A stretch of DNA of 56,956 bases. It comes from a virus. Its lineage: Duplodnaviria; Caudoviricetes. Shown here one piece after another: positions 32,846 to 49,646 of the stretch. The position numbers and the translations under genes were made by a program. Position 1 is the first letter of the stretch; each line of letters starts with the position of its first letter. The notes beneath the pieces are model-generated. The model ran no database searches, was not told the DNA's origin, and saw nothing but the letters and a program-made list of their open reading frames with translations. The stretch is from the IMG/VR virus record IMGVR_UViG_3300036791_000660, positions 1 to 56,956 of that record; one strand, given 5' to 3'.

Positions 32846-34534
32846 CTAGCCCTGCACCACGGAGATTTGCGAAGTCGAGGTGAAGAAGTACGACTGCGGA
32901 TCGCCGAAGATCAGGAAGGTGCCGGCGCTGGGCAGCGTGCCGATGCCGTTGATCGACACCGCGAAGGTCAGCACCGAGATGAAGGTCGGGCCGAGCACGT
33001 TCTCGACGGCGGTCTGGAACACGTCCTCCATCACCAAGACGTTGAGCGGCTGGCCGACGATCACCGAGTTCACGTAGTCGGCGAGCGCCGGGGCGGCGAG
33101 TTGGGCGATGGCGGCGGCCGAGATGAAGTTCGGCGAGTCGGTGTTCCACGTCACCGTCATCGTCACCGTCTGCTGCGGCGGCACGACGAAGTTCACCACG
33201 TAGGTGTCGGGGTAGTCGGTGATCGTGACCGCGAGGTTGCGGTTGTTGGGCGTCACCACGCCGCCCGACACGTAGGCCGGCAGGCCGGTCGAATCGAAGT
33301 TGGCGATGCCCGCCTGAAGCTGGCCGAGCACCGTCTCGGCGCCGGGATTGGTGGCCAGCGGGAAAGTGATGGTGGTGCCCGACGCGGTGGTCGCCACGAA
33401 GGTGCCGTTCCAGCCGGCCGGCGTCGAGCCCGCCAGCGCGAAGGTCGAGCCCGGCGTCACGTTGTGCGCCACCAAGGTGGTCGCCGTGGCGACGCCAGCG
33501 GCCCACGCCAGCGACGCCAACTGGTTGGCCGGATAGGCCGTGCCAAGCTGGAAAGTCTTCTCCGAGGGCACCGCGAGGATGGCGTGGTTGCCGTTGAAGC
33601 CCACCGGGTTGACGCCGGCGAGCGTGATCGGCTGGCCGACCAGATAGCCGTGGTTGAGGTCGGTCGTGACCACCGCCGGGTTGGCGTTGGTGATGTTGGT
33701 GACGCTGACCGTCGAGCCGACCAAGTTCGAGATGTCGAACAGCGCAGTGTAGATCGCGTTGGCGACATCGTAGGGATCGCCGCCGCCCACGATGATCATC
33801 CAGCCACCGGCCGGGCCGGGCTGCTGCTGGATTCCAATCAGGCGCGATTGGACTCCGGGCACGTTCTCCAACAGCGTGCGCAGGTAGCGCGGCATGCCCT
33901 GTGAGGCCGCCAGCCCCGCCTGAAGCACCCGCGCCCGGTACATGCTCTCGGTCTCGGCGTCGGTGCCGGGGACGCCGGCCTCGGGATTAACGACGGTCAG
34001 CGTGAAGCCGGTCGGCGGCGGCGTGATCAGTTGCGTCACCACCCCCGGCGGCACGCTGAAAGAGCCGGCCTGCGTGGCGAGGGCGAACAGCGGATCGCTC
34101 TGGCCGGACTGGCCGATGATGCCGCCATCCCGCAGCGCATATTGGAAGTTGCCGTCGGAGACGATGAAGCCCTTGCCGATCACGAAGCCCGGCAGGCCGG
34201 AGAACACCACCAAGACGCTGGTGTTGCTGGCCGTACCGGGAACTACGCCATAGACCTCGCCAAGCTCGGCGAGGATGAAGGCGTTGCAGCCGAACGGCGT
34301 CAGCGAGTTGACGGTCTCGACGCGCGCCAGATCGGCCAGCACCAGCGACTGCACGTCGGTGCTGACGATGTCCTCGACCAGCGAGCCCGGCAAATTTCCG
34401 CTGAAACCCGGATTCGTCGCCGACACGCCGGACACCACCTCCTCGCGCAGCGTGAGAGGCGGCGTCGGCACCAGCCCGGCCGGGCCGATGACAGTCGGAA
34501 GTTCGCTCCCCGATGGCGGGATCGGATCGGCCAT
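32846..34534 (-). CDS. Baseplate J-like protein
   Basis: NLPGSLVEDI, AETESMYRARVLQA and GGGDPYDVA.AI motifs; synteny. Confidence 0.8.
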   Translation of the reverse strand: MADPIPPSGSELPTVIGPAGLVPTPPLTLREEVVSGVSATNPGFSGNLPGSLVEDIVSTDVQSLVLADLARVETVNSLTPFGCNAFILAELGEVYGVVPGTASNTSVLVVFSGLPGFVIGKGFIVSDGNFQYALRDGGIIGQSGQSDPLFALATQAGSFSVPPGVVTQLITPPPTGFTLTVVNPEAGVPGTDAETESMYRARVLQAGLAASQGMPRYLRTLLENVPGVQSRLIGIQQQPGPAGGWMIIVGGGDPYDVANAIYTALFDISNLVGSTVSVTNITNANPAVVTTDLNHGYLVGQPITLAGVNPVGFNGNHAILAVPSEKTFQLGTAYPANQLASLAWAAGVATATTLVAHNVTPGSTFALAGSTPAGWNGTFVATTASGTTITFPLATNPGAETVLGQLQAGIANFDSTGLPAYVSGGVVTPNNRNLAVTITDYPDTYVVNFVVPPQQTVTMTVTWNTDSPNFISAAAIAQLAAPALADYVNSVIVGQPLNVLVMEDVFQTAVENVLGPTFISVLTFAVSINGIGTLPSAGTFLIFGDPQSYFFTSTSQISVVQG

Positions 34535-34569
34535 GGACAATACCTGTCAATTCGTGTTTGGTGGGTGAA

Positions 34570-34651
34570 GCCGCGCCACGGCAAGTCCCGGCGGGGCTAG
34601 GCACGTCGAGGCAAGGTCTGGCCCGGCGGGGTTCGGCAAGGCACGGCAGGC
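34570..34651 (+). ncRNA. Stand-alone GGY-NN repeat cassette A (putative guide RNA)
   Basis: 15 in-phase pentamers ending GGCAGGC; intergenic and antisense to the late genes. Confidence 0.8.
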
Positions 34652-35044
34652 TTAGAGTGGGATCGGCACGCTCACGTCGATCTTCAGGCCAGCATGAGTG
34701 ACGATGTTGATGCGGTAGACCGGCGTCGTCGGATCAGGGACTTTGGCGATGATCAGCGAGGCGAACTGCGCAGCGAATCGCTTCTGGGTCATCACGACTT
34801 CAAAATCGGGGAAGACCTGCTGCAACACGCTGTAGGCCGCCGCGATGCCCCAGTCGGCATAAAACGGGCTCTCGCCTGCGTTCAGCAGCAGCACCTGCGC
34901 CAGCGCCGTCAGCATCACCATGTCGTTGAAGCCCTTGGCATCGGTCGTGACCACGACCCACTTCTTCGGCCCCTTGTTGAAGCTGATGTTGCTGCCGGGT
35001 GGACCGCCGAGCGGCGTGGCCGGGATGCGGCCGTAGGTCCTCAT
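34652..35044 (-). CDS. Baseplate wedge subunit (gp25-like)
   Basis: MRTYGR..L.LN.GESPFYADWGI; between spike and J. Confidence 0.65.
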   Translation of the reverse strand: MRTYGRIPATPLGGPPGSNISFNKGPKKWVVVTTDAKGFNDMVMLTALAQVLLLNAGESPFYADWGIAAAYSVLQQVFPDFEVVMTQKRFAAQFASLIIAKVPDPTTPVYRINIVTHAGLKIDVSVPIPL

Positions 35045-35706
35045 GGGACGACCGGGCCGCTGGTGCCCGAGCCGGGCTGCACATTCTGGTGGGTGTGCGC
35101 CGGGAAGACGTGGGTGATGTTGTCGATCAGGGTGCCAGCGGACGTGATGTCGAGGCCCATGCCTTGGAAGTTGAGGTGGAAGCCGCTGTCATCGACCCGC
35201 ATCAACACCTGCCCCTTCCATGTGACGGTGAGGCCGGTCTTGGTGTCGAGGTTGAAGATGATCTGCGAGTTCTCGTCGCGCAGGATCACGCCGTTGGGGC
35301 CGTAGATCAGCGTCTTCTCGGGATCGTCGGTCGGCGTGAAGTTGACGTTGCCACACGGGAAGAACACGCCGGTCGAGAGGTTGCCCGGCGGCGCGTAGGA
35401 CGCCTTGCCTTTGCCGAGCCCCGACATCTCGCCCATGTAGTAGTCGGCGCTGAGCACCAAGCCCTTGGTGCCCTTCTTCAGAGGCCAGCGACAGAACTCC
35501 GGGCCGTACACCGGCATCTTGATCTTGGGCAGCGTCCACTGCGACACGGTCTCGAACTTCACCGTGACGATGGTGCCGGTGGGATCGACCTCATCGACCG
35601 ACGCCGGGTGCGACTTCTGGAGCGCCTGATGGAAGCCGCTCAGCCGGTTGTCGGTGAGGCGGTTCAGACCTTGGATGGCTGGAAAGCGCTGTTGCGTCAG
35701 GTTCAT
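35041..35706 (-). CDS. Baseplate central spike
   Basis: OB-like N-terminus; C-terminal HxH (AHTHQNVQPGSGTSG) metal-binding tip. Confidence 0.8.
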   Translation of the reverse strand: MNLTQQRFPAIQGLNRLTDNRLSGFHQALQKSHPASVDEVDPTGTIVTVKFETVSQWTLPKIKMPVYGPEFCRWPLKKGTKGLVLSADYYMGEMSGLGKGKASYAPPGNLSTGVFFPCGNVNFTPTDDPEKTLIYGPNGVILRDENSQIIFNLDTKTGLTVTWKGQVLMRVDDSGFHLNFQGMGLDITSAGTLIDNITHVFPAHTHQNVQPGSGTSGPVVP

Positions 35707-48538: not shown

Positions 48539-48545
48539 GGCTGGA

Positions 48546-49490
48546 TCAGTCCTTCTTCAGGTTGATCGCGGTGACGAACCGCTTGTTGGGCGCGTGGCGG
48601 TTCATCCACGAAGCCGGTGAGCCCATGAACCGGGTTTCGAGATGGCCGGAATCCCGGCGAGTCTGGATGGCGCGCAGCGTGCCGACGGGAACGCTTGCCG
48701 GATCGCGGGCGGCGGCCTTGGCCGCTGCGTAAATCTGGTCGCGCACGGTGCGCAGCGCGGCCTCATCGACCGCCATGATGGCGAGATCGACGCCCTTCCA
48801 TTGCGGCGAGTGCTTCTTGAAGCGCTCCATCTGCCGCAGGTCGTAGCTGGTCGCCGTGTCGCCGATCAGCGGACGCGGAGCTTGCAGGCCGAACATCCCA
48901 TCGACCGAATCGCAGGCATGCTGGTTGGGCGCGAGGTCGTGGTCCGAGCGCTCCTTCGGCATGCGCTTCTCCAGCGCCGCCATGCGCTTGCGCAGCGCAT
49001 TGAGATCGACCGCGTCGGTGGCAACCTCCTTGTCCTTGGGCGGCGGCGGTGGCGGCGCCTCGTCGTCGTCATCGTCGTCATCGTCCTTCTTCGCCTCGCC
49101 CTTCTTCTTGTCGGCCGCGACCGGCACCGGCTCGCCCGTGCCCGGAGGAGGCGGCGGCTTCTTGGCCGGCGGTGGCGGCGGCGCCTGATCGTCGTCGTCG
49201 TCGTCCTTCATCACCGGCGCGACGGGCGGCGACACTTCCTTGGGCGGCGGCGCCTCGGCGTCCTTCTTGGCGACGGCCGCAGCGGCTTCCGCCGGGCTGT
49301 GATCGTCGTCATCGTCGTCGTCCTTCTTGCCCTTGAGGCTGGCGAACTTGCTCTCGAAGGCGTCCATCCGACCGCCCATCGAGTCCAACTTTTTGTCGAG
49401 CGCATCCAAGCCCTTCAAAAGTTTGTCGAGATGCGTCCCACCGCCAGCATCGGCGGCGACCTTCGGCTTGTCCTTGTCCTTTTCAGCCAT
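48546..49490 (-). CDS. Capsid scaffold-like protein
   Basis: GAGGAG RBS; D/P/K-rich disordered body; between DUF2213 and decoration genes. Confidence 0.7.
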   Translation of the reverse strand: MAEKDKDKPKVAADAGGGTHLDKLLKGLDALDKKLDSMGGRMDAFESKFASLKGKKDDDDDDDHSPAEAAAAVAKKDAEAPPPKEVSPPVAPVMKDDDDDDQAPPPPPAKKPPPPPGTGEPVPVAADKKKGEAKKDDDDDDDDEAPPPPPPKDKEVATDAVDLNALRKRMAALEKRMPKERSDHDLAPNQHACDSVDGMFGLQAPRPLIGDTATSYDLRQMERFKKHSPQWKGVDLAIMAVDEAALRTVRDQIYAAAKAAARDPASVPVGTLRAIQTRRDSGHLETRFMGSPASWMNRHAPNKRFVTAINLKKD

Positions 49491-49554
49491 GACTGTTCTC
49501 CTCGGCTGGTTGGGTGATTGACAAATGCTGTCTGTCTGGATAGCCGATGCATTC

Positions 49555-49646
49555 GACATGGCGCGGCGAGGCCCGTCGTTGCAACGCGAGGCAAGCCGAG
49601 GCAAGGCAAGGCGTGGCTATCTGGGACGGCGCTTACGCGCCGTCCC
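49555..49646 (+). ncRNA. Stand-alone GGY-NN repeat cassette D (putative guide RNA) with 3' hairpin
   Basis: 13 in-phase pentamers (49555-49619); GGGACGGCGC-ttac-GCGCCGTCCC hairpin; TTGACA at 49518. Confidence 0.8.

Follow-up and report, generated by a model that had tools for sequence, protein, structure and literature searches.

Introduction

VIPR systems, described only in 2026, combine a small protein of the RAMP type (Vipr) with an accessory gene (vap) and with vrRNAs, in which 9-16 YNNGG repeats are followed by a structured tail (bioRxiv 10.64898/2026.04.26.720920). According to the main text of that preprint, the NN dinucleotides pair with double-stranded DNA, passing over a single base of the target in each unit, most often the wobble base, a code that is argued to block synonymous escape. 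The vrRNAs have been characterised as discrete RNAs of ~100 nucleotides (nt) that co-purify with Vipr, and the structural companion describes one Vipr protomer per repeat (bioRxiv 10.64898/2026.04.26.720927). Solo vrRNAs, presumed users of another element's Vipr ("guns for hire"), are the subject of a third preprint, which places them on satellites and on 346 VIPR-null SUSP1-like phages, with a self-match below the non-self match (bioRxiv 10.64898/2026.10.15.759431). Here we analyse the window, which is the whole 56,956-bp virus record IMGVR_UViG_3300036791_000660 (linear, rated 100% complete, from a soil metagenome) and which carries four short pentamer cassettes, C1 to C4, in its late structural operon. 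We propose, with a probability of roughly 70%, that the four cassettes are solo VIPR-type vrRNA genes, each lying beside the phage's own recoded copy of the gene that it targets in relatives.

The cassettes share with the published vrRNAs their GGY/NN pentamers, in numbers within or just above the 9-16 units described, as well as a structured 3' tail, a 1-nt-skip reading that falls on wobble positions, and targets on either strand and in competing phages (bioRxiv 10.64898/2026.04.26.720920 and 10.64898/2026.04.26.720927). In the systems described there the guides flank vipr. Our phage has no detected vipr or vap, its cassettes are dispersed over the late structural operon, and what they target are structural genes of close relatives. 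The SUSP1 vrRNA tail is a pseudoknot, unlike the simple GC hairpin that follows a GGCA-GGCA handle in our cassettes. The solo vrRNAs of satellites and VIPR-null SUSP1-like phages likewise occur with neither vipr nor vap and match self less well than non-self; however, those of the SUSP1-like phages number one or two, lie where the VIPR locus was deleted and are aimed at vipr genes, at other vrRNAs or at satellites (bioRxiv 10.64898/2026.10.15.759431). The phage described here instead carries four guides inside the late operon, each beside its own target homologue, together with a 545-nt terminal array.

Free-standing homing endonuclease genes of T-even phages (seg, mob) are small self-contained units lodged between conserved genes, in the intergenic gaps. 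They target the adjoining gene in relatives that lack the insert, and their own allele is protected by sequence differences. The cassettes resemble such elements as intergenic inserts beside a target gene that are absent from relatives with the sensitive allele, but no nuclease was found associated with them, specificity would be carried by RNA, and gene conversion enters only by analogy. To our knowledge, adjacency of a guide to its own immune allele is not a feature of virus-borne mini-CRISPR arrays either. Those arrays are likewise effector-less virus guides aimed at close relatives, but are built of CRISPR repeat-spacer units with contiguous pairing (PMC6858448).

Results

Anatomy of the four cassettes

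The cassettes occupy the four larger intergenic gaps within the 34-50 kb part of the late operon and comprise the following elements.

34534-34550, plus strand: C1 palindrome TGGACA-N5-TGTCAA, promoter-like -35 or operator, abutting the baseplate J ATG (34534-34532, minus strand)
34575-34634, plus strand: C1 guide core of 12 pentamers, with NN = AC AA CC GG TA AC GA AA CT CC GG TC
34635-34690, plus strand: C1 3' handle GGCAA GGCAC GGCAG and weak tail hairpin, which overlaps the stop of open reading frame (ORF) 34652-35044
40113-40129, minus strand: C2 palindrome TTGACA-N5-TGTCCA
40035-40094, minus strand: C2 guide core of 12 pentamers, with NN = AT GC GT AA GC AA AG GT GT GA AT GA
39976-40034, minus strand: C2 handle GGCAC GGCAA, 14-bp tail hairpin and a second small hairpin that extends to the tape-measure ribosome-binding site
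44733-44749, plus strand: C3 palindrome-like site TTGACA-N5-TGGC
44779-44853, plus strand: C3 guide core of 15 pentamers, in a run that begins at 44769
44858-44903, plus strand: C3 handle GGCAC GGCAC and tail hairpin of ~14 bp
49518-49534, plus strand: C4 palindrome-like site TTGACA-N5-TGTC
49555-49599, plus strand: C4 guide core of 9 pentamers, with NN = AT GC GA CC GT AA GA AA GA
49600-49646, plus strand: C4 handle GGCAA GGCAA, then GGCGT GGCTA, and 10-bp tail hairpin

Each cassette is headed by a hexamer (TGGACA at 34534; TTGACA at 40129 on the minus strand, 44733 and 49518) embedded in GACA-N5-TG[TG]C, and the arrays begin at 34570, 40094, 44769 and 49555, which are the true starts of strict 5-nt registers; in C1, degenerate units already begin at 34560. 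An earlier, sequence-only reading of this DNA had placed the hexamers, the palindromes and the first pentamers correctly. It had also described a GC-rich hairpin at three cassette ends, and we find stems of 10-14 bp directly after the array in C2, C3 and C4, with a weaker 8-bp stem in C1 that overlaps the end of the upstream ORF. As that reading had it, three cassettes (C1, C3 and C4) run antisense to the late operon, which lies on the minus strand; C2 is sense. The order of palindrome, array and hairpin is the same in the inverted C2, and the unit is therefore self-contained.

The palindrome is rare in this genome. TKGACA-N5-TGKC gives nine matches at seven sites against 0.46 expected, a count that none of 100 shuffles reached; four of the seven sites are the cassettes, and the remaining ones lie at 584, 8400 and 11173, one of them an early promoter. 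The cassettes contain 13-18 in-register pentamers each, 7-13 of them strict GGY and the remainder degenerate G-N-C-NN. The runs show a marked strand asymmetry, are rich in G and have periods of 5 and 10 nt. When GGC is scored with regard to register, only the four cassettes and two peaks inside 1-568 reach 7/15 or more in the whole genome. All four runs pass into a GGCA-N-GGCA-N handle followed by the hairpin, whose 5' arms in C1, C3 and C4 share GGGAYSGGC, as read off the sequence. We assign the last two or three pentamers to the handle because they match no target in any alignment and are conserved; its removal leaves guide cores of 12 (C1), 12 (C2), 15 (C3) and 9 (C4) units. A search of Rfam gave no matches.

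A promoter scan of 33-51 kb returned no promoter-like sites. In the early region, the related motif TTGNCA-N5-TGTCA also marks sites at 584-598, 1460-1533, 8400-8416 and 11173-11187, and the early sites at 582 and 1517, with the same -35/TGTCA motif, carry good -10 boxes (TATATG or TATATT). The motif may be an operator common to the early promoters and the cassettes.

Putative guides match the adjoining genes with the wobble base skipped

To read the pentamers as guides, positions 4-5 were taken as NN and both strands were scanned at skips of 0-3, with shuffled guides as control. Only a skip of 1 gave signals, and at this skip the top own-genome match of C1, C2 and C3 lies in the adjoining gene; skips of 0 and 2 gave nothing above the shuffles, and a skip of 3 returned the cassette itself. 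The pentamer runs behave as guides, as the sequence-only reading had it, and as noncontiguous ones, at skip 1 only. Two full-length matches are significant by score: C2 with 23/28 at 39932-39973 (shuffled maxima 18.4 +/- 0.8) and C3 with 24/34 at 44906-44956 (20.3 +/- 0.8). The full-length match of C4 in its neighbour, 16/26, is aligned on the start codon and is not the genome's top score.

In all four cassettes the skipped base is the wobble position of the gene read, namely baseplate J for C1, the first 12 codons of the tape-measure gene for C2, the end of gene 44900-45406 for C3 and the start of a scaffold-like gene for C4. The distance from cassette to own target is 45-165 nt, in keeping with the earlier placement of a recoded target within about 150 nt. 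By plain blastn-short against the genome and 80 related loci, the cassettes gave chance-level contiguous matches only.

Relatives that lack the cassettes carry better-matching alleles

The 80 related loci were collected from IMG/VR around the major capsid protein (MCP) gene. The closest relative among them, L001/G001, has an MCP 86% identical, and in its genome G001, rated 100% complete, the syntenic junctions contain none of the four cassettes. Cassette-type arrays near the capsid gene were seen in none of the 80 MCP loci, and no second cassette-bearing relative was found among these loci or among the 26 IMG/VR matches to the handle-plus-tail pattern, none of which has an array upstream. Clusters of GGCA/TGCC in related loci were considered as arrays and rejected as coding repeats. 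Contigs of two soil DNA runs held only the source contigs and short fragments, with no cassette-less variant.

Two guides have exact counterparts in such relatives. The 11-unit gapped pattern of C1 has one exact match in IMG/VR (L220), which extends to 24/24; the gene concerned follows a 47%-identical homologue of ORF 34652-35044, from which it is separated by a 13-nt intergenic gap with no cassette. A collection of genome contigs gave no match to the C1 pattern. The 10-unit pattern of C3 likewise has one exact match in IMG/VR, extending to 29/30, in a relative (L221) with an MCP 62% identical. This match lies at the homologous gene end, where the stop overlaps the next start and there is no cassette. 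For C3, 11 of the 80 MCP loci reach at least 80%, against no sites in 40 shuffles. The best relatives for C2 (22/24 in L003) and C4 (16/18 in L072, not significant alone) are both matched at the homologous start codon. Taken guide by guide, the match to the phage's own allele against that to the best relative is 20 vs 24 of 24 for C1, 21 vs 22 of 24 for C2, 20 vs 29 of 30 for C3 and 13 vs 16 of 18 for C4.

The own alleles are recoded under the guide footprints

The phage's own alleles under the four footprints are as follows.

34382-34417, minus strand: under C1, baseplate J codons 40-51, TNPGFSGNLPGS; 20/24, 4 mismatches
39937-39972, minus strand: under C2, first 12 codons of the tape-measure gene, VAVNAKSVVDIE; 21/24; GC at third codon positions (GC3) 4/12
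44912-44956, minus strand: under C3, 15 codons, PSFVDTGLYLSSFRA; 20/30; GC3 5/15
49464-49490, minus strand: under C4, first 9 codons of the scaffold-like gene 48546-49490, MAEKDKDKP; 13/18

The C1 guide implies T-N/K-P-G-Y-T-D/E-N/K-L-P-G-S, as against the phage's own TNPGFSGNLPGS, with an own Leu codon TTG where the guide spells CTN. In the C2 allele all three mismatched bases are protein-preserving: the start codon is GTG against the guide's ATG, and a Ser codon is TCA against AGN. The C3 footprint, which ends three sense codons before the stop of gene 44900-45406, has two Ser and two Leu codons in the other family and two amino-acid changes. The mismatches of the C4 allele are amino-acid changes.

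Such codon-family switches exceed the background, which we measured at conserved positions between the phage and G001. All three Leu codons in the footprints are switched to TTG, a codon that makes up ~8% of late-gene Leu codons, against a background Leu family switch of 23/260; for Ser the figures are 3/4 and 49/125, and the Arg background is 5/101. Pooled, six of the seven six-fold-degenerate codons implied by the guides are switched (P ~1e-4, Leu carrying most of the weight).

The wobble positions are also unusual. Late genes average ~89% GC3, and blocks of A/T-ending codons lie exactly under the C2 and C3 footprints, the latter being the A/T-ending block of gene 44900-45406. Both footprints fall at the bottom of 9,563 late-gene windows (lowest 0.7% and 0.2%, respectively; mean 10.7/12). 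The skipped wobble bases under C2 and C3 thus seem to be recoded too, a feature that the published skip rule does not predict.

The sequence-only reading had proposed that each guide sits beside its own resistant allele. What stands of this is that the own allele matches less well than that of the cassette-less relatives and is partly recoded in a protein-preserving way; for C2, at 21/24 against 22/24, resistance is something we infer.

Array family, effector search and the left-end array

The GGY/NN repeat type also fills long noncoding stretches of unrelated IMG/VR contigs and of Mycobacterium phage Mattes. An AGGCA-N-GTCGAGGCA pattern in IMG/VR gave mostly single chance matches, with true arrays at seven loci. 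The proteins that adjoin arrays in the collected loci fall into two families, the larger of which has a C-terminal G-x-G-D/E-W/G-R-P loop. Because the hidden Markov model (HMM) of this family matches SUSP1 Vipr at 6e-19, we regard the collected arrays as VIPR arrays and Mattes gp52 as a Vipr homologue. At E up to 0.001 the Vipr family comprises 6,867 representative clusters.

In Mattes (L210, NC_051681, Cluster F), an unannotated GGCNN array of ~250 nt (2495-2760 of L210, ~36.7 kb) lies in the early rightward operon, followed by gp52, the Vipr homologue by HMM, and gp53, of a FEWND-motif family that also adjoins arrays in L125, L180 and L160. By blastn, similar arrays occur in 33 Mycobacterium and Gordonia phage records. 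A full VIPR locus is present in a contig of the same capsid family as our phage (L069, IMGVR_UViG_3300015371_000016, positions 1-1560), in the order vipr end, array, accessory ORF, second array; its repeats are CGCNN, with the handle CGCAA CGCAA CGCA, a variant repeat consensus in a relative.

Vipr HMMs built from 5, 6 and 155 sequences gave best E values of 0.37-1.2 on the ORFs of the genome, in a search by sequence that a very divergent RAMP protein could escape; the models from 6 and 155 sequences covered 763 stop-to-stop ORFs, wrap-around included, and the 5-sequence model covered start-to-stop ORFs of at least 45 aa. A six-frame search of the genome with the Vipr family alignment gave no candidates, and hhalign of this alignment against the genome reached a probability of at most 1.7. 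For vap, the HMM of the FEWDD-motif family that adjoins arrays, and SUSP1 Vap1, the two kinds tried, had no match in the genome.

The left end of the window carries a further array of the same repeat type.

1-545, plus strand: long noncoding GGY/NN array with 26 GGCA, in which the register shifts after a recurring GGCAC GGCAG

It ends at an early promoter, TTGCCA-17-TATATG (582-610), and looks like a staggered multi-vrRNA array; staggered arrays are mentioned in bioRxiv 10.64898/2026.04.26.720920. A sliding 10-unit guide and four hand-cut guides from this array, run against the phage's own genome and the collected loci, gave nothing above shuffles, and one exact IMG/VR scan gave no matches.

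Discussion

If the cassettes are solo vrRNA genes, they would be transcribed from the TTGACA sites as short RNAs. As no vipr or vap was detected in the complete genome, such guides would need an outside effector; the Vipr on which they are loaded could come in trans from the host, from a prophage or from a VIPR-positive phage infecting the same cell, and by its sequence the phage fits the class of solo vrRNAs on VIPR-null phages. The loaded Vipr filament would bind rival DNA at late structural genes, with the NN dinucleotides spelling the first two bases of successive codons in the relatives' gene and the wobble base skipped. What would let the phage's own allele escape are substitutions at the first two codon positions, most of which leave the protein unaltered: Leu CTN to TTG, a switch of Ser family, and ATG to GTG. 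Guide and immune allele would then travel together, as the sequence-only reading had proposed by analogy with free-standing homing endonuclease genes, and their tight linkage may have been selected for that; the layout is consistent with this idea.

A number of results weigh against this proposal. No effector gene was detected in the genome and no partner Vipr was identified, and the one related contig with vipr uses CGCNN rather than GGCNN repeats. None of the cassette hexamers is followed by a recognisable sigma-70 -10 box (the candidates being TTTGGT, TCTCTG, TCAGTC and TAGCCG), so that the transcript starts are a prediction only. The full-length score of C1, 23/36 at 34374-34427 against shuffled maxima of 21.3 +/- 0.9, is within the shuffle range (maximum 26), and the weight of this match comes from its position and core. 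The exact C2 and C4 patterns have no match in IMG/VR; the best relative of C2 is better by a single base, and for C4 three sites reach the 16/18 threshold against a mean of 2.65 with shuffled guides. Moreover, a match of at least 80% is the line for calling a target in the main text of the first VIPR preprint (bioRxiv 10.64898/2026.04.26.720920), which reports no self matches at that level, whereas here C1 and C2 match their next-door alleles at 83% and 87.5%; since both exceed the line, self-avoidance by these two alleles is unproven. Lastly, late structural proteins act in trans, and mere repression of a rival would be complemented. In a mixed infection both phages draw on the same pool of these proteins, so a benefit would have to arise in cis, on the rival's own DNA, perhaps as a block to transcription-coupled processes, replication or packaging.

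One better match to C2 also belongs here. Two near-identical short metagenome contigs match 11 C2 units exactly (L222 565-596 and L223 377-408; core 23/24), but their context is non-homologous, with no tape-measure or chaperone homology, and we rejected them as the target. The match lies in a 41-codon ORF beside a gene that by eye looks pRiA4b-ORF3-like, and may be due to chance or be an unrelated target.

We considered whether the linkage of guide and allele is historical rather than selected, the guides having been born from or acquired with the neighbouring segment, for instance by module exchange at variable junctions, after which the own allele drifted or was recoded. We regard this as unlikely, though it is compatible with the guide reading and does not contradict it. 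The cassettes do lie where conserved modules meet, at divergent junctions, around which blastn of the window against L001 is interrupted (49750-49136, 44931-44155 and 40267-38062). No second genome with a cassette was found that could show co-transfer. However, the recoding is restricted to the footprints and enriched for protein-preserving family switches, which points to selection against self-match whatever the origin.

It is improbable, in our view, that the cassettes and the 545-nt array are anti-VIPR decoys, soaking up the Vipr of a rival or host with little regard to NN content. Solo vrRNAs of satellites have been described as neutralising a phage's VIPR (bioRxiv 10.64898/2026.10.15.759431), and the left-end array has no detectable targets; yet sponges would not be expected to show the code- and position-specific matches of C1-C3 to neighbours and relatives, and in the main text of the same preprint the targeting of decoy sites, beyond competition for protein, was required.

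Autoregulation, in which the vrRNAs, through their partial match, would bind late genes of the phage itself and so time or dampen late expression, would make sense of the level of the C1 and C2 self-matches and of the C2 and C4 footprints, which cover the first codons of the neighbouring genes. We hold it to be quite improbable: foreign alleles match better (24/24 vs 20/24; 29/30 vs 20/30), the own alleles have rare codons exactly where pairing breaks, and the genome has no detected effector. That the runs are not guides at all but protein-binding DNA iterons, Rho-utilisation sites on late mRNA, or R-loop or G-rich origin elements is scarcely credible despite their G-rich, strand-asymmetric, periodic make-up, as the orientation of C2 relative to the operon is inverted, Vipr genes of other phages are flanked by repeats of this type, and such elements do not predict exact 22-base gapped matches in related phages or 3-nt-spaced matches to adjoining genes, which none of the candidates rejected (TRAP-like or Rho (rut) RNA sites, DNA iterons or pac sites, Chi clusters, two-tetrad G-quadruplexes, R-loop origins) predicts.

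Returning to the solo-guide proposal, we speculate that cassette and recoded neighbour together make up a selfish module with two parts, which would do with an RNA guide what intronless homing or a poison-antidote drive does. In a mixed infection the guide, on any Vipr available, would disable or stall the rival genome in cis at its sensitive allele; recombination rescuing the rival would copy guide and immune allele together, and the module would spread in the phage population. We put this forward tentatively, and consider it doubtful. As part of it, the switches of codon family (Leu, Ser) and of start codon would be a natural escape route from a code proposed as escape-proof.

The main texts of the three 2026 VIPR preprints, supplements not included, mention no solo guides scattered through a structural operon, no aim at the structural genes of relatives, no systematic adjacency to the guide's own allele and no escape by codon-family or start-codon switching. 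The guides described in them adjoin vipr or lie in the scar left by its deletion, and the phage here carries only guides. Its own alleles suggest how a coding target could evade a wobble-skipping code with no change of protein, through six-fold-degenerate codon families and the start codon, which bears directly on the published claim that synonymous escape is blocked. For guide, sensitive allele (of the L220 and L221 type) and immune allele alike, every base is known, and the locus would, if the linkage is selected, offer a testable case of an RNA-guided, drive-like element in phages.

Genomic setting and further observations

The genome has a GC content of ~65%. Early genes occupy the plus strand at 0.6-24 kb, and a myovirus-type late operon fills the minus strand at 24.4-56 kb, with these landmarks.

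32846-34534, minus strand: baseplate J gene
41359-43008, minus strand: sheath gene
46872-47894, minus strand: MCP gene

Named phages are distant relatives only, with a capsid identity of at most 57%, and megablast of the genome against them gave no match. Just upstream of the tape-measure gene, ORF 40137-40424 overlaps ORF 40256-40831 in a different frame and has a product whose tail is conserved in L001; the arrangement resembles the frameshifted tail-assembly chaperone pair commonly found in this position. The only PD-(D/E)XK-like ORF, 2492-3415 (DUF3799), lies within the early recombination module. The product of the first early gene, 666-1457, begins like a signal peptide and continues with ~200 residues of Gly/Ser-rich (GGGGS-like) repeats.

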